Shown here: in pieces, positions 23,398-47,316 of the stretch
Layout of the letters: every line of letters begins with the position of its first letter
Numbering within the stretch: the first letter of the stretch is position 1
Program-made: the position numbers and the translations under genes
Assembly: GCA_013697045.1 (NCBI GenBank)
Contig: JACCXJ010000253.1
Location: forward strand, 1-47,594
Length of the DNA: 47,594 nucleotides
Source: Gammaproteobacteria bacterium
GTDB lineage: Bacteria; Pseudomonadota; Gammaproteobacteria; JACCXJ01
Direction: 5' to 3'
Notes under the pieces: generated by a model
Seen by the model: only the letters and a program-made list of their open reading frames with translations
What the model was told of the DNA's origin: nothing
The model's database searches: none

Positions 23398-23898
23398 GGG
23401 TTCTCGAACGGATTCAGGAAGGTGGAACCGGGGCCCGCGCTGCGACCGTTCGCCACGCGGCGGCGCGTGATGCCTTCGGGCCTCTTGGTTCTTGAGCTTG
23501 CGCGCCCGAAGGCTCCGTAGCCGCAACCGCGGCCTCGTGCTCGTGGTCAAGTGTAGGGGATTGGCGAGCTTAGCGTCAAGCTCTTGCGCAATGTTCATGC
23601 CAACGCTATACTCAATTATAAGCGCAACACCCCAGTGAGACGAACATGTCCGTGCTGTCCGCCCTGCGCCAGATCCACTTGGGCTTTACTTGCGAGCGAG
23701 CCGTAACGATCAGGCCGAGCTGCTGAACCTGATTTACGCCGGGGATGCCTCATGTTTCGGCGGCGGAAATATGATGCATACGCCAGTCGATTTCACCGGG
23801 CCGCGCGAGACGCCCGGATGCGATCGCAGGCACCTGTCCCTCCGGGCAGGGCACAGATCTATTAACACGAAGAAACAAACAAGTATGGACGTGAGATC

Positions 23899-24240
23899 AT
23901 GGAAATGAACGCAATCGCACGCAAGCTGGAGGTCATAGAGAAGAAGGGCGCGATGCGCTCCGTTGACGTCGCAAATCTCCTGGGCACGCGCCCGGAGACC
24001 GTATCGCGCTGGAATCAGGGCAAGGCCTTTCCTCGTCCCGAAACGCAGAAGACACTGCTTGAGCTGGAATACCTGATCGAACAGCTGGCCGACTTCTACG
24101 AGCCGCAGGAGGCTAGGTTGTGGTTGTTCGCACGCCAGAAGCGCCTGGGCGGCGTCACACCTGCCGAGCTGATCCAGGAAGGCAAGATAGACGAGGTCCT
24201 CGCCGTCATCGACCAACTACGGGACGGGGTGTACCTGTAG
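23899..24240 (+). CDS. Xre/MbcA/ParS-type antitoxin
   Basis: N-terminal HTH (VANLLG..PETVSRW) plus W.......LGG.TP..LI..G....V C-terminal domain. Confidence 0.88.
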   Translation: MEMNAIARKLEVIEKKGAMRSVDVANLLGTRPETVSRWNQGKAFPRPETQKTLLELEYLIEQLADFYEPQEARLWLFARQKRLGGVTPAELIQEGKIDEVLAVIDQLRDGVYL

Positions 24241-24262
24241 GCGGCGAGGCAGGGTGTAGTCC

Positions 24263-24835
24263 TTGATTCACGATCTGGATCTCCTCGATCGCCTCAGCGC
24301 GTTCGACCCGATCAAGTTCGGCGGCGAGGTGTTCCGCGCGACTCGGAAAAGCCTGGATCCGCTCACTCCGTCTACCAGCGGTGGACGCTGGGCGCCGAAG
24401 GACGGGCCCGCAGTGCTTTACATGAGCACGGAGGGCGAGGGTGCACTTGCCGAGATCGCGTTTCATTGGAGCCAGTTCTACCCGCTGCCGAGCAAACCCG
24501 CCGCGCTGCACCGCATCGGTCTAACCGCCCGCCGGACCATGCGGCTGCTGCGTGCGGATCTTGTCGATCTCGGCGTGGATTGGGCGCGCTATGGCGAGAT
24601 GAGCTATGAGCGCAGCCAGGTGATCGGGGCCGCCGCGGCGTTCCTCGAACGCGATGGCCTGCTTGCACCTTCGGCTAGATGGTCGTTGCGAAACCGTAGT
24701 CCTATTCGTGGACAACCATGCCCCAGATAACCGCCTGGAGGTGCTCGCCACTGAAGAAGCTGTCGATTGGCTGACATGGGCCGGAGCCAACGACCTGCTT
24801 GCCCCGGAAGGCCCGAATCACTCTGCCGAAGGTTG
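24263..24835 (+). CDS. RES-domain toxin (NAD+ phosphorylase-like); frameshift ~24685
   Basis: VFR, GGRW, LYMS....ALAE, SQ.IG.AA, L.PSAR; continues in another frame (ETVVLFVDN) to the stop at 24836. Confidence 0.82.
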
Positions 24836-25220
24836 AGGGCGCGGGGGCACCCTCCAGATCGAGGCCGGTTCCGGGTCTGCCGACAGCCGTATCGCCGGCT
24901 CGAATCGGCGTTTAGAACAAGAAGCTCATCGCAATGGAACACCTCGGTCTACCGCAGCACCTCCGAAACGGTTTTGCTCAGGCTTCCACAATGCGCTTGG
25001 CAAGCTGAAATTGAATGCCGAAAAACCACCACGGTCGTCGACTGTGACTGTCCGCTATTGGCCGGTATGTGACCTGGATGTCGAGAAGTCGGTACCCGAT
25101 CCAAAGCGGCGAGCGCGATGGACTAAAGATTGGAACGCCAACGCGGTATTGCAACGTCGAGGCGGCGGGTGGTCGCGGGTGTCCTCGCACGGAAGTGTAT
25201 AGTATCGCGACTTATTCAAC

Positions 25221-26285
25221 ATGACGGAATATTGCCCCGCGAAACCCATCCTCATCGCCCATCGCGGGGCGAGCGGTTATCTCCCCGAACACACGCTCGC
25301 GGCCTATATGATCGCCATCGAACAGGGTGCCGATTTCATCGAGCCGGACCTCGTCAGCACGGCCGACGGCGTGCTCATCGCCCGCCACGAGAACGAGATC
25401 GGCAGCACCACGGATGTCGCTTCCCGTCCGGAATTCGCCGCTCGCCGGACCGTCAGGCACATCGACGGCGAGCCCGTAACCGGCTGGTTCGCCGAAGACT
25501 TCACCCTGGCCGAGATTAAGACGCTGCGGGCCAGGGAGCGCCTTCCCGGGATCCGGCCCCACAACGCCCGCTTCGACGGCCTGTTCGAGATCCCGAGCTT
25601 CGAGGAGGTCCTGAACCTCGTCCTGGCCATGAACGAACGCCGGGCACGTGACGCTCTGATGTTCGGCCGGCCGCGACCGAGGCCCATCGGTCTATATCCC
25701 GAGACCAAGCATCCGAGCTACTTCCGCGACCTCGGGCTCCCGCTCGAGGCGCGGCTCATCCACAGCCTGGAGCGCCACGGATACGGTCGGCCGGATGCCC
25801 CGGTGTTCATCCAGTCCTTTGAGGTCGCCAATCTCAAGGCGCTGTCCCGGATGACGGCGCTGCCGCTCGTGCAGCTCATCGAGGCGGAGGGCAAACCGTA
25901 TGATTTCATGCTGAGCGGCGATCCGCGCCGCTACGCCGATCTTCTGGTTCCGGCGGGCCTCGCCGAGATCGCGGCGTATGCGCGGGCCATCGGCGCGAGC
26001 AAGGATGTGCTCATCCCCCACGCAGAAGACGGCTCTCTGGGACCGCCGACCACGCTCGTCGCCGACGCCCACGCCGCGGGGCTCCTGGTGCATGCCTGGA
26101 CCTTTCGTGCCGAGAACGCCTTCCTCCCCGCCGCATCGCGCACCGGGACCGATCCGGCGGCGCTCGGGGATCTCGACAGCGAGCTTTCTGTCTTCCTCGA
26201 TCTCGGCATCGATGGTGTCTTCACCGATCACCCGGGGATCGCCGTGCGCACAATGCGAAGGGCGGCGATGAGCAACTCGGGCTAG
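25221..26285 (+). CDS. glpQ: Glycerophosphodiester phosphodiesterase
   Basis: IAHRGASGYLPEHT, IEPDLV.T.DG, ETKHP, QSFE, WTFR.EN, GVFTDHP. Confidence 0.93.
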   Translation: MTEYCPAKPILIAHRGASGYLPEHTLAAYMIAIEQGADFIEPDLVSTADGVLIARHENEIGSTTDVASRPEFAARRTVRHIDGEPVTGWFAEDFTLAEIKTLRARERLPGIRPHNARFDGLFEIPSFEEVLNLVLAMNERRARDALMFGRPRPRPIGLYPETKHPSYFRDLGLPLEARLIHSLERHGYGRPDAPVFIQSFEVANLKALSRMTALPLVQLIEAEGKPYDFMLSGDPRRYADLLVPAGLAEIAAYARAIGASKDVLIPHAEDGSLGPPTTLVADAHAAGLLVHAWTFRAENAFLPAASRTGTDPAALGDLDSELSVFLDLGIDGVFTDHPGIAVRTMRRAAMSNSG

Positions 26286-26334: not shown

Positions 26335-26480
26335 CCCCCGGCTGGCCCCCGGCGCCTCCCCTTGGCCCTCGCTCGCCCGAGACGCCAAAGCACCCCGAAA
26401 CACAGCGCCTCGGGACGAGAAGGGCCCGCAAAGTCCCCGATCTCGGCCGAGGGATCGCATGTTGACCGGTTTGTCGAGTC
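26335..26480 (+). mobile_element. ISCR-like 3' non-coding remnant
   Basis: TTGGCCCTCGCTCGCCCGAGACGCCAAA...CGCATGTTGAC is a diverged inverted copy of 29515-29625. Confidence 0.65.
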
Positions 26481-26808
26481 ACGGTCCTCACGCCACTAAA
26501 ACACGAGTGGTATAAAGTCGCGCGATCGGGCATCCGATGGGGAACCCCCGAACCCTGCAAATGCTTACAATACGCTCGCACCTTTTACCGGTTTAGTTCA
26601 CGGCTTCTCTCTCAGCTCGCTTAGCATTCGACGTTAAAACAATGTGTTACAAAGCGGCATACGCCATGCCAGCGTATGTGGCTAAATTGTGGTAGTAACC
26701 ACCCACAATCAACCTGGGGGCCACGGCAGATGTGGCCCTTTATCTCATCGTCATCGGTGTCCTGGGTCTGGCGAGAAATCTAAGGCGTTAAACTTAAACC
26801 GTAAATGT

Positions 26809-26950
26809 ATGAAAGGCGGGATTTGGTGGGCAGGTTGGCTGAGCAGTAGTCTGCTGCTGCAGGCAGCCGACGCGGATGATTATCGCACGCCCCGCGCCGG
26901 CGAGGAATATCGCACAGAACTGTGGGGAATACCGATCACAGCGCCTGCGT
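26809..26950 (+). pseudogene. Truncated N-terminus of a putative secreted protein
   Basis: MKGGIWWAGWLSSSLLLQAADA signal-like segment, then DDYRTPRAGEEY; ends where the AT-rich island begins. Confidence 0.3.
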
Positions 26951-27011
26951 TCTTTTGTCCTGCAAATCATAAACTTGACTCATTTGCATCGTATTTCATG
27001 ATGCAAGTACT

Positions 27012-27554
27012 CTAGAGAAGTGGGCCCACAATCGTAAAACGAACTGGCTGCTCCCGGGACTCGGCAAACGCTTTGATGTTTCGTGTATCGCGGGCGTCAC
27101 GCGAAATGACGAGGAACTCAATGTCTGCAAGACCCGATGTGCGCTCAACCCCCTCTCTGAAAGCCTGCGACCCTGCGACAAATCTCACAAGGCCAGTAGC
27201 GAAGATAAGGCGTTTCCTCTCATATGTATCAAGTTTACTGACAATGAGTGGATATTTCCACTCGAACTGGCTAACCACCCGACGCAGATCTTTCAAGGTA
27301 AGTTCGGATCCGCTATGTGAGCAAGGACGCGTGCTGATCTCACATAAGCACCCCCCGAGGGTATCTCGGAGAGTGTCGCAGATCCTGATGTGCTGTGCTG
27401 TCAAAGGATTGAAAGAGCCAGGAAATACTGGATACCGAACATCGAGCAATCCATTCTCGCTCGCCGCATTTCGTCGCAGAATCTGCCCATCAGGTTGAAC
27501 TACGAGGTACTCGCTGTCTAAAGATGAATTGTAAAACTGCTGCAGGATGTCCAC
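27012..27554 (-). CDS. Divergent HxGH-superfamily (NadD/NMNAT-like) nucleotidyltransferase
   Basis: VFPGSFNPLTAQH; CEIS...L...D....V.QF; FVAG; FLV..R. Confidence 0.65.
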   Translation of the reverse strand: MDILQQFYNSSLDSEYLVVQPDGQILRRNAASENGLLDVRYPVFPGSFNPLTAQHIRICDTLRDTLGGCLCEISTRPCSHSGSELTLKDLRRVVSQFEWKYPLIVSKLDTYERKRLIFATGLVRFVAGSQAFREGVERTSGLADIEFLVISRDARDTRNIKAFAESREQPVRFTIVGPLL

Positions 27555-27560
27555 AGAAGT

Positions 27561-28328
27561 CTAAGCCTTTGCGATGTTTTTTACTCTGTCTTGTCTCCCC
27601 TTTCTGATGACTGCCCTGTCTTTGAGACTACTCCCATTATTTTCTTTAGTTCCTTCTCCTTTCGGAACACTCACGCTTGCTCTTGCGATCTCAACCTGCT
27701 GGTGTTGTTCCGCTTTGGTAACGGAAACCGTCTTTTCGATCACCAATGATGCTTGTTCGAAATCGGCAAAAAATGCGTCCGTTTCGTCGACCATCAGTCC
27801 ATGCATGATGTTTGAAAATCGCTTAAAAAGGCTGAACGCACGAGCGACGTCTTCATCATCGTCCAATTGATTATGCGTGTGAGCTAGCAACTCACTCCAC
27901 GCTAACTGGAACGCTGAGTGCTCTTTTTCAAGTGCCAGGGCAGTTCTAACATATCTTCTCGAGCCGGACGACATGCAAAGGAGCTTGTCGGCGCCGATGC
28001 AAAACGCCGAACATGCAAACGCAAGGTAGCCCCAAGCGGGATTGGCCTTTAACATCTTGATGTCCGCAAGAAGCAACACTGGATAGGCGGCGCCAAGTAG
28101 GGCCGCTAAAATCGCAATCCACCTCAGCCAGATTGCGAAGTGCTTCCTGGAGTCTTTTCTCTTCATATACCAGCGTTGCACCTCGAGCGATTTCTCCAGC
28201 AAGCTATTGTATATACTGTCCAACGAAACAAACCGGCCGTTCCTCCAGTCTGGAGCCGCAAGCTGTTCACCGACAATATTACGTGGAACCGGCGGCTGAG
28301 ACTCAGCTTTAGGATCAGACACAGCCAT
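27561..28328 (-). CDS. SLATT-domain 2TM effector protein
   Basis: WY..RK......A..LR..AI, two hydrophobic helices, WGY...D.....SSG..RY..T...LE.....F...W (SLATT_2-like). Confidence 0.82.
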   Translation of the reverse strand: MAVSDPKAESQPPVPRNIVGEQLAAPDWRNGRFVSLDSIYNSLLEKSLEVQRWYMKRKDSRKHFAIWLRWIAILAALLGAAYPVLLLADIKMLKANPAWGYLAFACSAFCIGADKLLCMSSGSRRYVRTALALEKEHSAFQLAWSELLAHTHNQLDDDEDVARAFSLFKRFSNIMHGLMVDETDAFFADFEQASLVIEKTVSVTKAEQHQQVEIARASVSVPKGEGTKENNGSSLKDRAVIRKGRQDRVKNIAKA

Positions 28329-28380
28329 CTCCGCGGCTGATTAGTGAGCGTTGGCTCGCAACCGTAGCAGGCGGGTGCGA

Positions 28381-28920
28381 CTACCTTTCGGTATTGTTTG
28401 CGGGGACCAGAGGTAGTCCCACACGCAGCTGTTCGAGCACAACCTCAAGTGCCGAGCGCACACTTGACGCCCTCACCTCATCACGCCCTACATCACCGAA
28501 GTTCAAGCATCGCACTATCGCTCGAGATGGATCCATAACTGCACACGCGATAAACACCAGACCGGTAGGTTTGAACGGGCGTATGGTTCCGGGCCCGGAT
28601 ACACCTGTGATAGCAAGACTCATGTTGGCATGCGGATAGGCGAGCGCGAGCGCGTTAGCGGCCATGGCCACCGCCACCTGCTCACTTACAGCGCCGTGCG
28701 TTGATAGAAGGCTAAGTGCTACATCCAGCATCTGAGACTTGGACTCGGACGCGTATACAACCATCCCACGGTCAAAAACATCGGAGGCGCCTGGCACGGA
28801 TGTCAATACTGCAGCTAGGAGGCCCCCGGTGCAGGACTCAGCCGTCACGAGGCGGCATCCGGCGTTCTGGCATTCGGAGACGACTTGGCGGGCGAGCGCT
28901 TTCGTTGCCTCATTTACCAT
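28381..28920 (-). CDS. pncC: CinA C-terminal domain / NMN deamidase PncC-like
   Basis: TAESCTGG, PGASDVFDRG.V.Y....K, GAVSEQVA..MA, ITGV.GP, G.VFIA, R..VR. Confidence 0.92.
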   Translation of the reverse strand: MVNEATKALARQVVSECQNAGCRLVTAESCTGGLLAAVLTSVPGASDVFDRGMVVYASESKSQMLDVALSLLSTHGAVSEQVAVAMAANALALAYPHANMSLAITGVSGPGTIRPFKPTGLVFIACAVMDPSRAIVRCLNFGDVGRDEVRASSVRSALEVVLEQLRVGLPLVPANNTER

Positions 28921-28999
28921 GTGTGAACCTGCTGAGCACGACGGGGAATGCGCGGCGTTGAGCGCTGCGTTCCCCGCCCAGGTGGTTCCACGTGCGACC

Positions 29000-29350
29000 A
29001 CAAAGCTTATCCGAATGTGGCCAACTGCTCAACGTTGGCGTGCTCGTCGGCACCGGCACTTCAAGCCGACACCGTGTTGTTGATGCGACGTCGTCGTGTC
29101 AGCAGCCGTGGGGGCGCGGTCTGCCGACACCGAGGCGCCGATCATCGTCTTGGTCCCGCGACGACGCGACGCTGGGCGAGTTCTTTGACTGGCTGGGGCC
29201 ACGGTGCGCGGTCGATACGGGGCGTGTACTGCGACGTGCGGGCGCCTTACCTCAAGCACATTCCGTCCCGCCTGCCGCAGGCCACGATTGTGCTCGACCG
29301 GTTTCATGTCGTGCAACATCTCAACGAGGCCGTCCACCACGTGCGCGGGC
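29000..29350 (+). mobile_element. ISL3-family transposase remnant
   Basis: IRGVYCDV.APY...I..RLPQATIVLDRFHVVQHLNEAV; frameshifted and truncated. Confidence 0.85.
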
Positions 29351-29450
29351 CAGTTGACTCTTTTCCATCAACGTGGACGAGGTGCAGAACGTCGCTGAGA
29401 ACGATCTGGTCACATTGCTCCCCGAAGGCCGCAAGTTCGGGGCGGGACTG

Positions 29451-29745
29451 GGAATAGGGATTTAAAACGCCCTGTTTCATGAAGAGGCACAGTACTGCCG
29501 GGCTCGTGAGCTGTCAACATGCGAGCCCTGATCCTGCAATCGGGCCATTGTCGGGCCCTTCATCGGCCCGAGGCGCTATGTTTCGGAGCGTTTTGGCGTC
29601 TCGAGCGAGCGAGGGCCAACAGGGAGGGTCGGCTTAGGGGCTGAACCGGATGGGATCGGGGATCGGTGGGGATCAGGCCATTTGGAATCGATCGAAGGCC
29701 TGGCCGCTGCTCGGGGCGGTGCTCGGGCGGGGCAGGTCTCGATGT
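29451..29745 (-). mobile_element. ISCR/IS91-like remnant with transposase C-terminus and oriIS-like end
   Basis: P.RAPPR....FDRFQMA tail shared with the 43170-43600 copy; ends GAAACAGGGCGTTTTAAATCCCTATTCC. Confidence 0.7.
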
Positions 29746-29979: not shown

Positions 29980-30498
29980 AGATCATCAATGTGAACGACG
30001 GGGCGGTGCACACGAGATAGTCCCGGGGCTGTAGCCCGCCCGACACCCCTTGCCAGGACCCGCCGCGTGCTTATGATCCCCCGCGCCGCCTCGCCGCGCG
30101 TGGTCCTTGCCTATGACGGAATCCGACAACCCTCCTTCGGAAGCTCGGCCATTGGAAACAGAGCCTTTGGTTATCGAGCGTCTGGAGAGCGTCTTCGAGC
30201 CCCCCCTGCCCAAGCGGCCGGGGGATCGCTGGCGCTGGGCGCGCCTCTACGGCTGCGGGAAGGGGCTCGCCATCGCGGCGGCGGCGCGCCGCCATCGGGG
30301 GCCTTGCCTCGTCATCGTACCGAATGCCGCGGAGGCCGGCCGCATCGCTGATGAGGTGCAGTTCTTCGGGGATGACAGCTTGGAACCGCTCGCCTTCCCG
30401 GACTGGGAGACGCTGCCCTATGACCGCTTCTCGCCGTACCAGGACATAGTCTCCGAGCGCCTCGCGACGCTCTACCGCCTACCGGAGCTCCCGGGCGG
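29980..30498 (+). pseudogene. mfd: Diverged duplicate of the mfd upstream region and 5' end
   Basis: Colinear with 43635-44153, scattered substitutions, breaks after LPELPGG. Confidence 0.95.
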
Positions 30499-30664
30499 AT
30501 CGGCCCGCGAGTGTCTCGTAGACCGCGCGGCGCGCCGAGGCGCCTCGCTCGATCGGCGCCCTCTCGGCTCCTCTCTTCGCTCTTCGCGCGCACCCGCATC
30601 CGGATCCGCGGACGTCGCGTATATACTCGGGAAGCGAACGATGATCTGACGAGGAGGGCCTGTC

Positions 30665-32584: not shown

Positions 32585-32750
32585 GGACGAAGAATGATCG
32601 CGGGGGAACAACAGATCACGCCGGGGGTACATGGGATCATCGCAGCGAGACGAGAGCGCATCGCGTGCGAACGAAGGATCCTCGCGTGCGAACGATGTCC
32701 GGACCGCCGGCAACGTCGTCCGCACGGGTGCGGACGATGTCGTCGTCGAG
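32585..32750. repeat. Partial copy of the 21-bp-periodic element
   Basis: GATCATCGCAGCGAGACGAGAGCGCATCGCGTGCGAACGAAG shared with the copies at 38315 and 39540. Confidence 0.8.
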
Positions 32751-38314: not shown

Positions 38315-38805
38315 TCGATCCCCGCACGGATCCATACATTGCCGGAACGCTGAGGCTCGGGATCGAAGGATCATCGCGATGGAGCAAAGGAGCATCAAGC
38401 GCGGGCGAGGGATGATCGCGAGGAAACAAAGGATCACCGCGAGGCAGACATCGGATCATCGCAGCGGGACGAGAGCGCATCGCGTGCGAACGAAGGGGCA
38501 TCGCAGGGGAAGGACAGTCCCCACAGCCGATGACGTCGCCCGCGCGCGTGCGGACGACTGTTTCGGCCGAGAGATCGATCCTCGGGACGCGCGTCCGCGT
38601 AAGCATGGGTCGATGTCCGGTGAAGGATCGGTGCGGCAGAGGAACCGCCCACTACGACTCCTTCCGCAATCGCCGCCGCCCGGACCTTCGGACGAAGGAC
38701 GGGGTGGTCTAGGCGAAGCGCCCGTTCGGCGGTCCCGAAGCGGTGCTCCGCCATCTCAGGCGCTATACCCATCGGATCGCCATCGGCAACGAGCGCCTAC
38801 TCGGT
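38315..38805 (+). mobile_element. Repeat element copy A with internally deleted IS91-family transposase remnant
   Basis: Near-identical to 39540-39965; ends in HYDSFRNR (cf. YNSCRNRHCP) and VV*AKRPFGGPEAVLRHLRRYTHRIAIGNERLL. Confidence 0.8.
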
Positions 38806-39539: not shown

Positions 39540-39965
39540 ATCGATCCCCGCACGGATACATACATTGCCGGAACGCTCCCGATTGAAGGATCGAGGCTCG
39601 GGATCGAAGGATCATCGCGATGGAGCAAAGGAGCATCGCGCGCGGGCGAAGGATGATCGCGAGGAAACAACGGATCACCGCGAGGCAGACATCGGATCAT
39701 CGCAGCGGGACGGGAGCGCATCGCGTGCGAACGAAGGGGCATCGCAGGGGACGACGTCCCCACAGCCGATGACGTCGTCCGCGCCTGTGGGGACGACGTT
39801 TCGGCCGAGAGATCGGTCCTCGGGACGCGCGTCCGCGTAAGCATGGGTCGATGTCCGGTGAAGGATCGGTGCGGCAGAGGAACCGCCCACTACGACTCCT
39901 TCCGCAATCCCCGCCGCCCGGACCTTCGGACGAAGGACGGAGTGGTCTACGCGAACCGCCCCTTC
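39540..39965 (+). mobile_element. Repeat element copy B (IS91-remnant-containing)
   Basis: Direct repeat of 38315-38730. Confidence 0.85.
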
Positions 39966-39972
39966 GGCCGGC

Positions 39973-40151
39973 TGGCGCCTCTGCAGCGCGGCGTCCGGAT
40001 CAAGAGGACCGGCGCATTGCGATCATCTGCGAGTCCGAGCTCTTCCCCGAGCACGCCCCCAGGCACGCCGCCGGAGCCGCGCCGCGCGCGATCCCGAGGG
40101 GCTCATCCGCGATCTCAGCGAGCTGTCCCAGGGCGCGCCGGTGGTCCACGA
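39973..40151 (+). pseudogene. mfd: Internal mfd fragment
   Basis: Matches about 45125-45302 (APLQRGVRI...ESELFPEHAP...RDLSELSQGAPVVH) with small indels. Confidence 0.92.
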
Positions 40152-40199
40152 AGACCATGGGGCGGGACGGGCACACGAGCGTCGCCGGCGCTGATCTCG

Positions 40200-40311
40200 A
40201 TCTATGCGCCGGCGAGGTGACAGTTGAAGTAGGCGCCGCCGAGAAGTTATCGAACTCGACACCCGTAGTCTTCGAGTTTAACTCAAAACCGGACGACCAA
40301 ACACGCGCCAT
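40200..40311 (-). pseudogene. Truncated 5' end of a gene coupled to the beta-helix gene
   Basis: ATG overlaps the upstream TAA (TAATG); MARVWSSGFELNSKTTGVEF; composition shifts back to GC-rich near 40200. Confidence 0.55.
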
Positions 40312-43121
40312 TAGAAGCCTCTGGTAAACGCAATAATATCCCAGGTACTATCGGTGCCATTGTACACGGCGCCGAGGTAGTCGGTCTTGTTGGCCGTAGT
40401 GGTTAGGGTGATGCTGGCGAGATCGGTGTTCAGCCGGAAAGCGGTGTCGAGCGAAATAGTACGCGATCCGGTGGCATCCTGTTTCAGCCGCCAGATACAC
40501 TTCTGCCCATCGGTGGGATTTGTTGGATTACCGAGCAGCCTGTTGCCGCCAAGCGTGACCATAAATATGTTGCCCGTCGAAGCATCGGTGGCGATCGTCG
40601 CCGCGTCGGTGAGCCCAACAACCGCCGAACCTTTGATGATTGGTTGAGTGAGCACAGTGCTAGCAGATTGCAGCGCCCGGCCTGTCTCGCGCCAGTTATT
40701 GCCATCCCAGACAAGCGATACGGTATCGACCGCATTTGCTGCAGTAGATAACGTAAGTGAGCTGTTGGCAAGCTTGACATTGCTCGGCCAGGTGACCGTC
40801 CGACTACCGGTTGCGTCTTGGGTAAGCACAAGGATGAGCCGGTCGCCAATAAATGAACCATTGGTGACCGTGAACGTCACGTTACCGGTAAGCGTGCCAT
40901 ACTGATGGTCGCCATTGACCCGTGTAACAGTCACCGCACCCGCGATATTGCCCAACGAGTAGGGTGCGATCGGGTTAATACCACGGTTGTTACGGACTGC
41001 GCTATTGGTCCCCGCAACCCTCGGGGTTTGGTTAAAGTTACTGACGAACGAGTTGTTCTCGACGGTGTGTCCATCCCCTCCTAAGATAGTGACTGTCCGT
41101 GAGGTGACGTTACCTTCGATGGTGTTCCCACGTACTACAATCGGGCCAGCGGTGGTGCTACTGAATTGCACAGATGCCTTGTTTATCCGGCCGTTATTTT
41201 TGCAGTAGTTGTCGGCAACGAGCACTCCGGTCTGGGCGCCCTGGCCTAACACGGCCGATGAGTCGGTGTTCTCGATTGTATTGCCAATGATCACTATGCC
41301 GCTGATCGTTGCGGCCGAATCCATTTCAACTCCAACCCCGTCGGTCGAGATTTGCGATACTGAAGCACCAGCAGGGTAGGTGGTAGTCTGTGATGAAGTA
41401 CAACCAGTCAGCGCGTTTATGCTCTTGCCGGTATAAGTAAATTTATCGGTTGAGATCAGCCGGATCGTCCCCGATGCAGCAAGGCTACTCGCGTCGACTA
41501 CCGACGCAGTGAAAGGCGTACTAGATAGTGTAATCGAGGAAGTAAGATAGGTCATTACCCGGGAGGCGTAACACTCGTTAATGATATTGCCGCAAACAGT
41601 AATTGACTGCGCCGTATGCAAGCTGTCGCCTTGAATTGCGACGCCCTTTTGACAATGACTGATTTTGTTACCGCTTACCGTGACGTTCTTGCCACGGACC
41701 TGAATACCATTGACATTTGATGCGGCCGGGTCGAGGTAGCTAATGCCGCCGATACAAGTATTGTTGGCAAACAAACCTCCATCGAGTGGCTGGTGACAAT
41801 CGAAGTGAGCGGTATCTGATGCAACAGAAGTATTCCCTACGACAGTTAAGTCGCGGGTGAGGCCCTCGTAATTCGTCGTGCCGTGCGTACCGACCACGAC
41901 TGAATGACGACATCTGTTGAAGTGATTGTTGGCGACTGTAAGATTGCGGGTAGCTGATGCTACCAAGATACCATAGCGAATCGTAGCCGAGGCCGTGGTA
42001 GTCTTTACACGGTTAACAACGTTGCCTTCAAATGTAGAATTTAAACAGCTGGTGAAGTCGACTGCCGTATACCACACTTCTTTCCATTCGCAGTCTTCCA
42101 CCTTTAGCCCATCCACGTATTGTGCAAGGAATGTTGCTGTGGCAATATCTGGCGTGCTTGTCTGCGCTGAAGTGAACGTAATGCCACGGACGGTGACGTC
42201 CTTTAGGACAGATACCTTGATAATTGTGGCGCTATCGGAAAGCAGGTGAGGAGAATATATCCGGTCATCGAAGTATACCTGACCATTGGTGGCATCAACT
42301 GATTTGACGATTTTAACTTCATCGGTGTGTTTATTTGGTGTGTCCACCAGGGCGTTCGAGCGTACCAAGACATAATCTCCGGCCAAGAAAGTTGCAGCAT
42401 TAGCGGGCGACACCGAGACGGCGGTGTCGCCAATATTGGCAGAAGCCACGAGAGAGAATGAGGTCTCGAAGGTTGGAGACGAGTTGATAGTTAACGCGTT
42501 GCTACTCGCCCCAGTCAATGAAGTGTCCATAGTAATTGTGGTCAGGCCGCGACCCGAGCCTTCAATCACGATATTTGACAGACTTGCTGTCAATGGCGTC
42601 TTGATCAGCATGTTGGCGCCTGGCGGGAACCGGTAAATCTTATTTGCCCCATACGTCGTCAGCATCGTCTGGAAGGCGGCGGAGTCGTCTGTTACGCCGT
42701 CAAGCACAAGCTCATGGTCAGCCGTGTTGATGAAGATAGTATCTTTAGGGATACCATTCGGTGCCTGCCAACTCGCCGCACTGCTGCTGGTTGCCGTTAT
42801 AACTTGACCATTGGAGGGTATCCCAGTAACAGCGACGCCGTTTACTTTCGCCACCGCGGGATTGGGGTACGTACCCGTCAAATCACCGCCGGCCGAACCG
42901 GTTGGCGTGCGGGAATCAGTTAGCCGAGAGTCAGTCGTAACTGCAATACCAGTTCCATTAATGGTAGCGCCGCCAGTAAAGTCTTTAGCGCCAGTTATTG
43001 TTTCGCTACCAGCTTTATGCACCACTGCATTATCGTCGGCTTTAGTGGCAAGGGTAGTAGACGATTTAAGCGTGCCATCGCTATTGTGATCATCTGACCC
43101 AGGGGTTGGAAGTCGCGTCAT
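40311..43121 (-). CDS. Right-handed parallel beta-helix (pectate-lyase/tailspike-like) protein, 936 aa
   Basis: DGVTDDSAAFQ entry motif, many V.GN/I..N repeats, two C-terminal L.QDATGSRT domains, fibre-like GGDLTGTYPNP; AT-richer than host. Confidence 0.8.
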   Translation of the reverse strand: MTRLPTPGSDDHNSDGTLKSSTTLATKADDNAVVHKAGSETITGAKDFTGGATINGTGIAVTTDSRLTDSRTPTGSAGGDLTGTYPNPAVAKVNGVAVTGIPSNGQVITATSSSAASWQAPNGIPKDTIFINTADHELVLDGVTDDSAAFQTMLTTYGANKIYRFPPGANMLIKTPLTASLSNIVIEGSGRGLTTITMDTSLTGASSNALTINSSPTFETSFSLVASANIGDTAVSVSPANAATFLAGDYVLVRSNALVDTPNKHTDEVKIVKSVDATNGQVYFDDRIYSPHLLSDSATIIKVSVLKDVTVRGITFTSAQTSTPDIATATFLAQYVDGLKVEDCEWKEVWYTAVDFTSCLNSTFEGNVVNRVKTTTASATIRYGILVASATRNLTVANNHFNRCRHSVVVGTHGTTNYEGLTRDLTVVGNTSVASDTAHFDCHQPLDGGLFANNTCIGGISYLDPAASNVNGIQVRGKNVTVSGNKISHCQKGVAIQGDSLHTAQSITVCGNIINECYASRVMTYLTSSITLSSTPFTASVVDASSLAASGTIRLISTDKFTYTGKSINALTGCTSSQTTTYPAGASVSQISTDGVGVEMDSAATISGIVIIGNTIENTDSSAVLGQGAQTGVLVADNYCKNNGRINKASVQFSSTTAGPIVVRGNTIEGNVTSRTVTILGGDGHTVENNSFVSNFNQTPRVAGTNSAVRNNRGINPIAPYSLGNIAGAVTVTRVNGDHQYGTLTGNVTFTVTNGSFIGDRLILVLTQDATGSRTVTWPSNVKLANSSLTLSTAANAVDTVSLVWDGNNWRETGRALQSASTVLTQPIIKGSAVVGLTDAATIATDASTGNIFMVTLGGNRLLGNPTNPTDGQKCIWRLKQDATGSRTISLDTAFRLNTDLASITLTTTANKTDYLGAVYNGTDSTWDIIAFTRGF

Positions 43122-43600: not shown

Positions 43601-43767
43601 TCATGCCCTGCTCTTCGATGAGGAAGCCCTTGCGAGATCATCAATGTAAACGACGGGGCGGTGCATACGAGATAGTGCCGGGGCTGTAGCCCGCCCGACA
43701 CCCCCTTGCCAGAACCCACCGCGTGCTTATGATCCCCGTGCCGCCTCGCCGCGCGTCGTCCCTGCCT

Positions 43768-46700
43768 ATGACGGAATCCGACAACCCTCCTTCGGAAGCT
43801 CGGCCATGGGAAACAGAGCCTTTGGTTACCGAGCGTCTGGAGAGCGTCTTCGAGCCCCCCCTGCCCAACCGGCCGGGGGATCGTCGGCGCTGGGCGCGCC
43901 TCTACGGCTCCGGGAAGGGCCTCGCCATCGCTGCGGCCGTGCGCCGCCATCGGGGGCCTTGCCTCGTCATCGTACCGAACGCCGCGGAGGCCGGCCGTAT
44001 CGCCGATGAGGTGCGGTTCTTCGGGGGTGACGGCTTGGAACCGCTCGCCTTCCCGGACTGGGAGACGCTACCCTACGACCGCTTCTCGCCGTACCAGGAC
44101 ATCGTCTCCGAGCGCCTCGCGACGCTCTACCGCCTGCCGGAGCTCCCGGGCGGCATCGTGATCGCCGCCGTGACGACCCTCATGCAGCGGCTGCCGCCCC
44201 GATCCTTCCTCGAAGGGAACACGCTCCTGCTCCGCACCGGCGAGCGGGTGGATCGCGACGCGCTTTGCGAGCGCTTGATCCGCGGCGGTTATCGGGCCGT
44301 GTCCCAGGTGATCGAGCATGGGGACTATGCCCTGCGCGGCTCCATCATGGATGTGTTCCCCATGGGCAGCCCCTCCCCGTACCGCATCGACTGGCTGGAC
44401 GACGAGATCGACAGCCTCCGCACCTTCGACCCCGAGAGCCAGCGCTCGACCGGCACCGTCCCCGAGATCCGGGTGCTCCCGGCGCGTGAGTTTCCCCTGA
44501 CACCGACGGCGATCGAACGTTTCCGCGGCAACTGGCGCGCGCGCTTCGAGGGCTCGCCCCAGGGCTCGCCGTTGTACCGGGACGTGAGCCAGGGCCTCTG
44601 CCCGCCCGGCATCGAGTATTACCTCCCGCTGTTCTTCGAGGAGACGGCGACGTTGTTCGATTATCTGCCCGCCGACACCTTGATTCTCGTGGATACCGGG
44701 GTCGAGGAGGCGGCCGAGCGTTTCCACGGCGAGGTCCGCGAGCGCCACGAGTCCCTGCGCCACGACCGCGAGCGCCCGCTCTGCACACCGGCCGAGGTGT
44801 TCTTCTTGCCGAACGAGGTCTTCGCCGCCGTCAAGGCACATCCCTCGATCATGCTTCTCGGCCCGCTCGCGGAGCGCACGGACGGCGTTTCGGTGCTCGC
44901 CACCCTACCGCCTCCCACGCTGCCTATCGGGGCGCATGCGGCGGACCCGCTCGGGCTCGTGAAACGTTTTCTCGCGACCTATGAAGGGCGGGTCCTGTTC
45001 GTGGCCGAATCCAAGGGCCGGCGCGAGACCCTCTCGGAGCTGTTCCGGCAGCACGCGATCCCCTTCGTGCTTTTCGCCGATTTCCCCGCCTTTCTCACGG
45101 GCGACGCGCGCATCGGCCTCACGGTGGCGCCTCTGCAGCGCGGCGTCCGCATCGAGGACCGGCGCATCGCCATCGTCTGCGAGTCCGAGCTATTCCCCGA
45201 GCACGCCCCCCAGGCACGCCGCCAGAGCCGCGCCGCGCGCGATCCCGAGGGGCTCATCCGCGATCTCAGCGAGCTGTCCCAGGGCGCGCCGGTGGTCCAC
45301 GAGCACCACGGGGTCGGTCGTTATCTCGGGTTGTTTTTACTCGATGCCGGCGGCACCCGGGGCGAATACCTGGGCATCGAATACGCCGACGGTGATAAGC
45401 TCTACGTGCCCGTCCTGGCGCTCCATCTGATCACCCGCTACACCGGCGCGGAGGGCGAGCACGCGCCGCTCCACAAGCTCGGCAGCAGCCAGTGGCAAAA
45501 GGCTCGGGCGCGTGCGGCACAACGCATCAGAGACGTGGCGGCCGAGCTCCTCGAGGTCTATGCGAAGCGCAGCGCGCGCACCGGGCATGCCTACGGCATC
45601 GATGAGGACGCCTACCAGAGCTTCGCCCAGGGCTTTCCCTTCGAGGAAACGCCCGATCAAGCCGCGGCCATCACCGCGGTGCTCGGCGATCTCAGGGCCG
45701 AGCAGCCGACGGATCGACTGGTCTGCGGGGACGTGGGTTTCGGCAAGACCGAGGTCGCGATGCGCGCCGCCTTCGTCGCGGCGATGGACGGGAAACAGGT
45801 CGCGATCCTGGTGCCGACCACCCTATTGGCCCAGCAGCACTTCGAGAACTTCAAGGACCGCTTCGCGGACTGGCCGGTACGCATCGAGTTCCTGTCGCGG
45901 TTTCAAAACAAACGCGAGCAGGACCGGATCACCACGGGCCTAAAAACAGGCGCCGTCGATATCGTCATCGGGACCCACAAGCTTTTGCAGGAGGACGTAT
46001 CGTTCAAGCGCCTGGGGCTTCTCGTCATCGACGAGGAGCATCGCTTCGGCGTGCGACAGAAAGAACGGCTCAAGGCTTTGCGCTCCGAGGTGGACATCGT
46101 GACTCTCACGGCCACGCCCATCCCGAGGACGCTCAACCTCGCGCTGTCGGCGGCGCGCGAGCTCAGCATCATCGCGACCCCGCCGGCGCGCAGGCTGGCC
46201 GTCAAGACCTTCGTCAACGAGTGGGACGACCACCTCCTGCGCGAGGCCATGGTGCGGGAGATCGCGCGCGGCGGCCAGGTGTATTTCCTCCATAACGAGG
46301 TCGAGACCATCGAAAACATCGCGAAAAAGATCGAGACCCTGCTCCCCGAGGGCCGCGTGCGGATCGCGCACGGACAGATGCGGGAGCGCGAGCTCGAGCA
46401 CGTGATGCTCGATTTCTACCACCAGCGCTTCAACTGCCTGGTCTGTACCACCATCATCGAGAGCGGTATCGACGTCCCGAACGCCAACACCATCATCATG
46501 AACCGCGCCGACAAGCTGGGCCTGGCCCAGCTCTATCAGCTCCGTGGCCGGGTCGGGCGCTCCCACCACCGCGCCTATGCCTATCTCGTGATCCCGCCGC
46601 GCCAAGTGCTTGGCGCCGATGCGGTGAAACGGCTCGAGGCCATCGCCTCCATTGAAGAGCTGGGCGTCGGTTTCACGCTCGCGACCCACGACCTCGAGAT

Positions 46701-47316
46701 CCGCGGCGCCGGCGAGATCCTGGGCGAGGAGCAAAGCGGGCATATCCAGGAGATCGGCTTCGGCCTCTATTCCGAGCTATTGCAACGCGCGGTCGCCGAC
46801 TTGAAGAGCGGGCGCGAGCCCCTGCTCGACCGCCCCCTCGACCACGGCACCGAGATCGAGCTGCACACCGCTTGCCTCATTCCCGAAGATTATCTCCCGG
46901 ACGTGCACACGCGCCTCATCCTCTACAAGCGCATCGCGAGCGCGGCGGACGATGCGGCCTTGACGCTCATCATGGAAGAGATGGCGGATCGCTTCGGCCG
47001 CCTGCCCGCGCCCGCCAAGGATCTCTGCCGCGTGACCCGCCTCAAGCTCCGCGCCGCGCCGCTCGGGGTCAAGCGCGTCGACCTCGGCCCCAGGGGCGGG
47101 CGCATCGTTTTTCACCCCGAGGCCCCGATCGATCCACTTTCGGTGGTGCGCCTGGTCCAGAGCCAACCCGCTCGCTATCGCTTCGAGGCTAACGAGCGGC
47201 TCCGCATCACGGCCGATCTGCCCGAGGGCGAGCAGCGCATGGACGCCCTCGACGCGCTTTTCGATCGCCTCGCGGGGCGGGATAACGATGCTGGTCGAAT
47301 CACGCGGCCTGGATAA
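43768..47316 (+). CDS. mfd: Transcription-repair coupling factor
   Basis: FPDWETLPYD.FSP, CGDVGFGKTEVA, DEEHRFG, QLRGRVGRS, TRCF domain. Confidence 0.98.
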   Translation: MTESDNPPSEARPWETEPLVTERLESVFEPPLPNRPGDRRRWARLYGSGKGLAIAAAVRRHRGPCLVIVPNAAEAGRIADEVRFFGGDGLEPLAFPDWETLPYDRFSPYQDIVSERLATLYRLPELPGGIVIAAVTTLMQRLPPRSFLEGNTLLLRTGERVDRDALCERLIRGGYRAVSQVIEHGDYALRGSIMDVFPMGSPSPYRIDWLDDEIDSLRTFDPESQRSTGTVPEIRVLPAREFPLTPTAIERFRGNWRARFEGSPQGSPLYRDVSQGLCPPGIEYYLPLFFEETATLFDYLPADTLILVDTGVEEAAERFHGEVRERHESLRHDRERPLCTPAEVFFLPNEVFAAVKAHPSIMLLGPLAERTDGVSVLATLPPPTLPIGAHAADPLGLVKRFLATYEGRVLFVAESKGRRETLSELFRQHAIPFVLFADFPAFLTGDARIGLTVAPLQRGVRIEDRRIAIVCESELFPEHAPQARRQSRAARDPEGLIRDLSELSQGAPVVHEHHGVGRYLGLFLLDAGGTRGEYLGIEYADGDKLYVPVLALHLITRYTGAEGEHAPLHKLGSSQWQKARARAAQRIRDVAAELLEVYAKRSARTGHAYGIDEDAYQSFAQGFPFEETPDQAAAITAVLGDLRAEQPTDRLVCGDVGFGKTEVAMRAAFVAAMDGKQVAILVPTTLLAQQHFENFKDRFADWPVRIEFLSRFQNKREQDRITTGLKTGAVDIVIGTHKLLQEDVSFKRLGLLVIDEEHRFGVRQKERLKALRSEVDIVTLTATPIPRTLNLALSAARELSIIATPPARRLAVKTFVNEWDDHLLREAMVREIARGGQVYFLHNEVETIENIAKKIETLLPEGRVRIAHGQMRERELEHVMLDFYHQRFNCLVCTTIIESGIDVPNANTIIMNRADKLGLAQLYQLRGRVGRSHHRAYAYLVIPPRQVLGADAVKRLEAIASIEELGVGFTLATHDLEIRGAGEILGEEQSGHIQEIGFGLYSELLQRAVADLKSGREPLLDRPLDHGTEIELHTACLIPEDYLPDVHTRLILYKRIASAADDAALTLIMEEMADRFGRLPAPAKDLCRVTRLKLRAAPLGVKRVDLGPRGGRIVFHPEAPIDPLSVVRLVQSQPARYRFEANERLRITADLPEGEQRMDALDALFDRLAGRDNDAGRITRPG

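Follow-up and report, generated by a model that had tools for sequence, protein, structure and literature searches.

The 47,594-nucleotide (nt) stretch analysed here, hereafter the window, is a contig of a gammaproteobacterial genome (JACCXJ010000253.1) that carries on its minus strand three co-oriented genes, arranged head to tail, for a PncC/CinA-type nicotinamide mononucleotide (NMN) deamidase, a SLATT_2 protein and a relative of the NMNAT/NadD nucleotidyltransferases. The locus raises the question of what two NAD-salvage parts could be doing in one operon with a predicted membrane effector. We propose, with a probability of about 0.35, that the three genes are one horizontally acquired abortive-infection module, in which a SLATT effector is controlled by the pyridine-mononucleotide state. 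This reading is drawn from a Rosetta-stone link between the first and third genes, the foreign origin of the cassette, its defence-island setting and the known role of SLATT proteins. What is new is the partner set for a SLATT-effector conflict system; the reading is weakest in resting on a single known instance of the cassette.

Composition of the cassette and its PncC and SLATT genes

The genes follow one another in the order PncC, SLATT, NMNAT-like, with spacers of 52 and 6 nt (coordinates in Table 1). Because its GC content is 0.53 against 0.64 for the window, the cassette is foreign and horizontally acquired. Gene by gene, GC amounts to 0.58, 0.50 and 0.51, and GC at third codon positions (GC3) to 0.59, 0.54 and 0.54 for the PncC, SLATT and NMNAT-like genes, respectively, with GC3 of ~0.8 in the neighbouring core genes; at a larger scale, a low-GC islet (~26500-29000, GC 0.50-0.57) is embedded in core sequence of 0.62-0.70. 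The first-pass annotation, made from the sequence alone, had described three tightly packed, co-oriented, AT-richer genes with these two gaps, and open reading frames (ORFs), GC and GC3 all bear it out; its three domain calls and the operon arrangement also hold in profile scans, the match of the NMNAT-like protein falling below the cut-off. Terminator-like sites were found in neither intergenic spacer; one lies inside the SLATT gene (28252-28229). Rfam and tRNA scans gave nothing near the cassette, the Rfam scan of the window returning one tRNA only. The reference assembly for genome-wide counts, G000, is the window's own genome (417 contigs, 90% complete, 4.57 Mb).

The PncC gene matches CinA (PF02464, E 1.4e-45, 155.1 bits for a cut-off of 23.5) and the PncC domain (TIGR00199, E 1.3e-35, 122.7 bits for a cut-off of 68.9), and in the alignment with its relatives it retains the AESCTGG motif together with E28, S29, C30, T31, G33, K61, T105, G106 and R146. 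Its S29 and K61 correspond to the Ser/Lys dyad S31/K63 of AtCinA, which is reported to be backed by mutagenesis (PMC5384747). The intact CinA/PncC enzyme seen at first pass is thus borne out by both the profile scores and the dyad. The assembly holds two CinA-domain genes, the window copy and one on contig C403 with host-like composition (GC 0.71, GC3 0.84) and 39% identity to it, and the best foreign relatives of the window copy are ordinary PncCs with 44-55% identity (best 120 of 5466 matches). Set against a housekeeping PncC such as AtCinA (PMC5384747), the window protein is alike in all conserved active-site positions and in its far-above-cut-off scores, and differs in being a second copy, in its GC (0.58 vs 0.71), in its distance from the C403 protein and in its operon with SLATT. 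As a second copy with foreign composition and all conserved positions present, it is an extra, island-borne, acquired and apparently functional NMN deamidase.

The middle gene had been called a two-transmembrane SLATT protein, and this is confirmed by SLATT_2 (PF18183, E 3.8e-20, 73 bits for a cut-off of 25), by NF033633 (E 2.8e-32, 111.8 bits for a cut-off of 40) and by two hydrophobic segments (residues 63-93 and 102-120, Kyte-Doolittle hydropathy) separated by a short loop. The SLATT_2 domain covers residues 19-197 and is followed by a charged tail; the nearest Atlas clusters are SLATT_2/DUF4231, with a score of 0.96. A word-based protein search matched only the protein itself, and neither tblastn against plasmids and phages nor a viral scan returned a relative. 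SLATT proteins are reported as mobile accessory or effector modules in UG/Abi systems (PMC9226505) and are described elsewhere in the literature as predicted nucleotide-responsive pore formers, and on the basis of its domain, the window protein is a predicted membrane effector.

The NMNAT-like protein and its CinA-linked family

The third protein has a single Pfam match, CTP_transf_like (PF01467, E 0.022), whose 15.4 bits lie under the cut-off of 21, so that its membership rests on phmmer matches to PF01467-bearing relatives and on structural neighbours in the Atlas. The Atlas model has a predicted TM-score (pTM) of 0.81, and its structural neighbours are bacterial CTP_transf_like proteins of 381-449 aa of the nucleotidyltransferase family (TM-score 0.74). 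In 1.84 billion cluster representatives, searched exhaustively with HMMER, 20 clusters reached E ≤ 1e-3: the protein's own fragment, one sister of 176 aa (P0003, E 3e-27, 36% identity), a longer relative (P0004, 345 aa, E 5.5e-11) and 17 weak matches; the family is very rare. No PncC on the 3262-bp contig of P0003 is among the best 120 of 5466 matches listed for the window's PncC. A word-based search yielded one weak match and tblastn against plasmids none, no relative emerged from a viral scan with the alignment of the window protein and P0003, and the gene was not detected in 60 relatives of the window genome, 14 of them from the same family.

The relatives have in common an N-terminal PDGQ followed by GSFNPLHxGH, FEIS, QFxWKxP, GxD and SSTxIR, and the family profile matches NadD (2h29, E 2.8e-8), human NMNAT (1gzu/1kqn, E ~3e-6) and PPATs. 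The first pass was right to see a HIGH-type nucleotidyltransferase relative here, but its view of FNPLTAQH as degenerate does not stand: the window reads GSFNPLTAQH where the solved human NMNAT (1kqn, 1gzu) reads GSFNPITNMH in the same columns, and since the human enzyme has this T-x-x-H form, without the Gly, the motif in itself is no evidence of inactivity. The changes that matter lie elsewhere. Conservation in at least 16 of 18 relatives marks out 27 columns; the window protein matches 20 of these, and it carries the changes H52 to T, K82 to G, T106 to S and D130 to Q. At GxD it reads G128-S-Q130, the Asp being present in 18/18 other relatives (GTD in NadD 2h29, GAD in NMNAT1), and the S, S and R columns of the C-terminal ISSTxxR are gaps. 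GxD and ISSTxIR, which are found in both NadD 2h29 and NMNAT1, contact nucleotide substrates.

P0003 has T52 in common with the window protein, and both have lost D130 and the terminal Arg; P0003 also lacks H55. No C-terminal remnant of the gene occurs downstream in any frame, and P0003 ends at the same place, from which it follows that the short form is ancestral to the pair; a recent truncation by the 47-nt element that abuts the gene is ruled out on the same grounds. The two proteins, at only 36% identity, have kept ORF length and fold motifs and share the absence of D130 and the terminal Arg, so that the altered form is old and has been maintained. In a maximum-likelihood tree whose 66 rows took in every viral row, every P row, the full set of 13 unfused rows from genomes and one in every three of the 67 fused ones, the window protein groups with P0003 (99/91) and this pair with P0004 (99/83), its deeper placement being unsure on account of long branches. 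The protein is thus probably a pseudoenzyme with the modelled fold kept, and the motif losses are consistent with the earlier suggestion of a sensor rather than an enzyme. Three cysteines, C59, C69 and C71, are shared by the window protein and P0003, whereas none of the 18 further relatives in the alignment has them; a metal or redox site specific to this clade is one possible role.

Pattern scans located the transferase family at 80 loci in genomes and 10 in viruses. Upstream of the motif, the frame stays open over 200 codons or more in 67/80 genome loci and in 3/10 viral loci (59/80 genome loci when counted from the first ATG with at least 150 codons), and 3 of the 13 short genome cases are cut by contig ends. 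This N-terminal domain is a divergent CinA-like one, homologous to PncC: of 10 proteins compared with Pfam CinA, 5 gave a match (E 3e-5 to 0.06), one above cut-off, and hhalign of 28 N-domains against PncC, spanning 121 columns, gives a probability of 93.9% (E 1.6e-7). Neither the catalytic Ser nor the Lys is retained in the fused domain, unlike in the window's CinA partner, which is a separate, canonical protein with its catalytic residues apparently intact. P0004, the nearest intact relative, is such a fusion. A PncC–transferase functional link, implied by the first reading, is therefore independently supported by the fusion of transferase relatives to a CinA-like domain, and we estimate that, with two PncC genes in a genome of 4.57 Mb, one of them would adjoin a given 3-kb span by chance with a probability of ~1e-3. 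The strongest single argument for function is this Rosetta-stone link: a transferase family in which fusion to a CinA-like domain is usual stands here in an operon with a canonical CinA-family enzyme, the SLATT gene lying between the two.

The two-domain fusion, a CinA-like domain without the Ser/Lys dyad joined to an NMNAT-like domain (L003-L082, L087, L091, L092, L094), is hosted by metagenome-assembled genomes of Alphaproteobacteria, Chloroflexota, Planctomycetota, SAR86, Rokubacteria and Patescibacteria. It is widespread and apparently uncharacterised, and it merits biochemical study independently of how the cassette is read. On viral contigs the NMNAT-like gene is mostly unfused and near NAMPT.

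A NAMPT gene lies within 6 kb in 9/10 viral loci and, among the 80 genome loci, in L080 only, where NrtR and NAMPT are followed by the CinA-like–NMNAT-like fusion gene; the other genome loci have varied housekeeping neighbours, one adjoining an NAD(P)HX repair gene and one a Nudix gene. Judging from this NAMPT linkage, the active family members are NAD-salvage adenylyltransferases of the NMN branch, and phages are reported to use a Nampt and Nmnat pair in NARP2 (10.1101/2024.02.11.579819). The first-pass annotation had invoked a NadD-like enzyme adenylating nicotinic acid mononucleotide (NaMN), a claim weakened both by these NMN-type relatives and by the key motifs missing from the window copy. 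Compared with phage NARP2 and the fusion family, the window protein is alike in its PDGQ and GSFNP motifs, its fold and its association with the CinA family, and differs in lacking D130, K82 and ISSTxxR and in having no NAMPT gene alongside.

A pyridine-mononucleotide-controlled module and its rivals

In the module that we propose, the SLATT_2 protein would be the membrane-disrupting effector, and the control part would consist of NAD-salvage parts, an extra PncC with intact dyad and an NMNAT-like protein that is related to the NAMPT-linked NMN adenylyltransferases but probably not catalytic itself. In the uninfected cell, PncC would convert NMN to NaMN, so that NMN stays low, and the NMNAT-like protein, either by itself or in a complex with PncC that mirrors the fused relatives, would read the pyridine-mononucleotide state and hold SLATT closed. 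An NMN surge, coming from phage NAD+ rebuilding via NAMPT/NMNAT-type pathways or from heavy NAD+ turnover, would overrun PncC; SLATT would then open, and the infected cell would no longer support the phage.

A narrower version, in which a pseudo-NMNAT from the enzyme family of phage NAD+ rebuilding reads NMN/NaMN, PncC sets the resting level and SLATT kills on an NMN flood, is a long shot. If true, it would mean immunity that senses an NAD+ precursor rather than a phage protein or nucleic acid, a guard against phage counter-defence and a prokaryotic parallel to NMN-gated SARM1. SLATT is a killing module reused by many defence systems, of which the sensor is the variable part, and the sensor side would here be made of NAD-salvage parts without a signal synthase. 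Should the proposal work, the NAD+ arms race would gain a layer, from host depletion through phage reconstitution to host detection of reconstitution, and immunity an example of a metabolic enzyme turned pseudoenzyme.

The nearest described systems share elements with this proposal. In type VII Thoeris, which pairs the TIR protein ThsB with the SLATT protein ThsH, the latter is reported as the effector, with canonical cyclic ADP-ribose as its proposed activator (10.64898/2025.12.03.692087). The likeness lies in a SLATT membrane protein as cell-killing effector (proposed for the cassette), in the small defence-island operon and in an NAD-derived proposed ligand. The window differs in having no TIR or other signal synthase, its partners being an NMN deamidase and an NMNAT-like protein, and its SLATT is of the SLATT_2 type without close relatives; no TIR-domain ThsB was found among the neighbours, nor was there a PADLOC match to it. 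The reverse transcriptase, noncoding RNA and SLATT of DRT10/UG17 form, as in the window, a tripartite system with a SLATT effector, the toxicity of which is reported to be checked by partner functions (10.64898/2026.04.29.721553, PMC9226505). There, SbcB is described as removing the activating species and setting the threshold, as PncC is proposed to do here; the window lacks reverse transcriptase and noncoding RNA, and the reported DRT10 activator is cDNA, not a metabolite. No CD-NTase/SMODS cyclase as in CBASS occurs in the operon or among the neighbours. By analogy only, SARM1 of animal axons, which is gated by NMN versus NAD+/NaMN, is a death effector reported to be switched on by NMN, with a bacterial NMN deamidase lowering the trigger and NaMN acting as an allosteric inhibitor (PMC9788811, 10.1101/2021.07.15.452560); proteins, kingdom and effector chemistry are unrelated, and NMN as the window's ligand is a proposal. 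The combination had not been recognised as a described system at first pass, and this still holds: no PADLOC system matched, and a full-text search, with supplements and the founding SLATT paper outside its scope, found no paper joining SLATT with PncC or CinA.

Several results weigh against the module. The triad has been seen in one organism only, and co-conservation elsewhere, proposed at the outset as a check, did not materialise: PncC and SLATT occur in 0/91 other transferase-family loci by tblastn, and PncC or the transferase within ~1.5 kb in 0/15 other SLATT_2 loci, so no second triad was found. The exhaustive protein search gave the NMNAT-like protein only one sister. With K82 and D130 lost, the NMNAT-like protein may no longer bind a mononucleotide. 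None of the 28 neighbouring ORFs scanned carries a SMODS, SLOG, TIR or similar nucleotide-signal domain, of the kind to which the SLATT family name points; PADLOC-DB v2 gives no family for PncC or SLATT and only PDC-M45B, at E 0.048, for the NMNAT-like protein; and the promoter and terminator scan of the cassette was no better than chance, identifying no cassette promoter. With mobile-element debris on both sides, the cassette may be what truncation has left of a larger unit. Its further copies are clonal and therefore uninformative on selection. A metagenome scan returned, besides an ordinary member of the family (L094), just this cassette again, on a contig of 3380 bp (L093). Near-identical cassette DNA (at least 0.9 of sampled words) was present in 10 of 22 runs listed, from 7 studies of soil, sediment and terrestrial metagenomes; 4 of these 10 may be the source sample, and no RNA run is among the runs listed. 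Contigs from four runs in four studies span 27012-29511 with 0-2 differences and with the ORFs intact, the differences being a synonymous one at Leu133 and, in the C-terminal tail of SLATT, the loss of 3 nt in frame next to a substitution.

A serious, if unlikely, competitor is a mosaic without joint function, in which an accessory PncC, an orphan SLATT and a decaying transferase were juxtaposed by mobile-element traffic, SLATT acting independently of the others. The ISL3 remnant, the 47-nt element that includes the transferase stop codon and the dispersed repeat on each side all suit it, as do the singleton status of the triad and the loss of three conserved transferase motifs. So does the variety of settings in which SLATT_2 genes are found: they occur in 9/401 genomes of the window's phylum, G000 among them, in 6/401 of a third phylum (4 above cut-off) and in 0/401 sampled from a second one (that of L013), and their neighbours at 8 Pfam-scanned loci include Fic, RhuM, PRTase-CE, KAP NTPase, HEAT/winged helix-turn-helix and the S subunit of a type I restriction–modification system. 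The same neighbours also count in favour of the conflict module, as part of its context. However, one strand with gaps of 6 and 52 nt fits an operon, and a transferase family in which fusion to a CinA-like domain is the norm is unlikely to have come to lie beside PncC by chance. Moreover, the altered transferase persists as an intact ORF in its sister, unlike a decaying gene, and runs from several studies show each of the three ORFs unbroken.

Somewhat less credible than the mosaic is a toxin–antitoxin (TA)-like module gated by protein contacts alone, in which PncC and/or the NMNAT-like protein would neutralise SLATT until a phage protein, or loss of a labile partner, frees it, the NAD-salvage ancestry playing no part. 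The region is indeed rich in TA modules (RES-Xre, RelE/MqsA-like, HigB), the transferase has lost ligand-contact columns, and in DRT10 the toxicity of SLATT is reportedly restrained by partner functions (10.64898/2026.04.29.721553). The counterweight is PncC, in which every catalytic and substrate-binding residue examined is retained, which argues for selection on enzyme activity and not just on binding.

The host's own route to NAD+ also runs through NaMN, so deamidation of NMN only postpones NAD+ resynthesis. This, together with the doubtful capacity of a transferase without K82 and D130 to act as a stoichiometric NMN sponge and with the core GDPD gene that separates the cassette from RES-Xre, itself a separate insertion, makes metabolic counter-counter-defence the least probable reading of all, one in which PncC would drain phage-made NMN (NAMPT, NadR and NMNAT pathways), the dead NMNAT would sequester NMN and the two together would back up defences that deplete NAD+, for instance the RES toxin nearby, with SLATT a separate or auxiliary effector, even though the transferase's active relatives are NAMPT partners in 9/10 viral loci, NARP2 and NARP3 are reported to pass through NMN, and RES-Xre lies 2.3 kb away and RES proteins are reported to deplete NAD+ in defence (10.64898/2026.01.28.702374).

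Mobile elements and neighbouring genes

The cassette lies in a variable, mobile, defence-island-like region (Table 1), and the repeats, the insertion-sequence remnant, the TA modules and a HEC-05 gene support a mobile, defence-like context.

Table 1. Positions of the cassette genes, their spacers and the elements that border them in the window
Feature	Position	Strand	Remark
PncC/CinA NMN deamidase	28381..28920	-	179 aa from likely ATG at 28920
PncC, longest ORF	28381-29001	-	GTG start at 29001
SLATT_2 protein, predicted membrane effector	27561..28328	-	255 aa; GTG at 28322 is a possible alternative start
NMNAT/NadD-like HIGH-type nucleotidyltransferase relative	27012..27554	-	180 aa; GTG start
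PncC-SLATT spacer, 52 nt	28329..28380	-	GGAG directly upstream of SLATT start
SLATT-transferase spacer, 6 nt	27555..27560	-	short enough for translational coupling
47-nt multi-copy element	26969..27015		abuts transferase 3' end, includes its TAG stop; downstream cassette boundary
ISL3-family transposase remnant	29200..29351	+	~280 nt upstream of PncC start; upstream cassette boundary
Dispersed host repeat, left copy	26349..26427		inverted relative to copy at 29554-29632
Dispersed host repeat, right copy	29554..29632		with left copy, brackets the low-GC cassette

The ISL3 remnant (PF01610, E 1.8e-12, profile positions 50-99 of 240) lies in an ORF at 28948-29457. The 79-nt inverted pair around the cassette is 80% complementary; it was considered as a pair of transposon ends and rejected, being a dispersed repeat of ~85 nt with 30 matches in G000 at 75-92% identity. 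The 47-nt element has 8 matches in G000 including the cassette copy (the others are L123-L129), 3 of which lie ~80 nt from contig ends, and the metagenome contigs break or diverge at it. It contains TTGACT-16-CATGAT together with a 7-bp palindrome. In five copies a longer shared sequence ends with it, and at least two copies are situated ~20-40 nt upstream of an apparent ribosome-binding site and ATG; the element may be the end of a mobile element from which a promoter points outward.

To the left of the cassette, synteny with the GDPD gene stops at ~26270-26284 in the congeners G001 and G002 (unpublished genomes). Beyond this core gene, which separates it from the cassette, stands a RES toxin with an Xre/MbcA/ParS-type antitoxin (23899-24730), and RES proteins are reported to act by NAD+ depletion in aRES defence (10.64898/2026.01.28.702374). 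The RES-Xre segment (23509-25128) is absent from G002, hence its standing as a separate insertion.

To the right, a 13.6-kb island is bounded by a ~400-bp direct repeat (29980-30378 vs 43635-44033, 94-96% identity) that spans the mfd upstream region and 5' end, which places the insertion at mfd; the left copy leads into an ORF (30107-30649) for an N-terminal fragment of Mfd, 180 aa long, and full-length mfd occupies 43723-47316. Among the contents of the island are an integrase remnant, an HNH gene, a GmrSD-like gene that matches PADLOC HEC-05 (E 4e-60), two TA-like modules (RelE/MqsA-like and HigB), a glyoxalase and a 936-aa ORF. The latter (40311-43121, minus strand) lies in a second low-GC stretch (~0.50) and has no Pfam or PADLOC match. 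Adjoining it is a second mfd-derived fragment (39973-40169 vs 45125-45320, ~200 bp of mfd interior, 93-94% identity), which suggests repeated rearrangement at mfd. The HigB region is flanked by a duplication (38315-38730 and 39541-39968, spaced 1.24 kb, 96-97% identity), and related units of 67 and 42 nt adjoin the integrase remnant (32608-32738), which suggests recombination-site-like repeats in the island.

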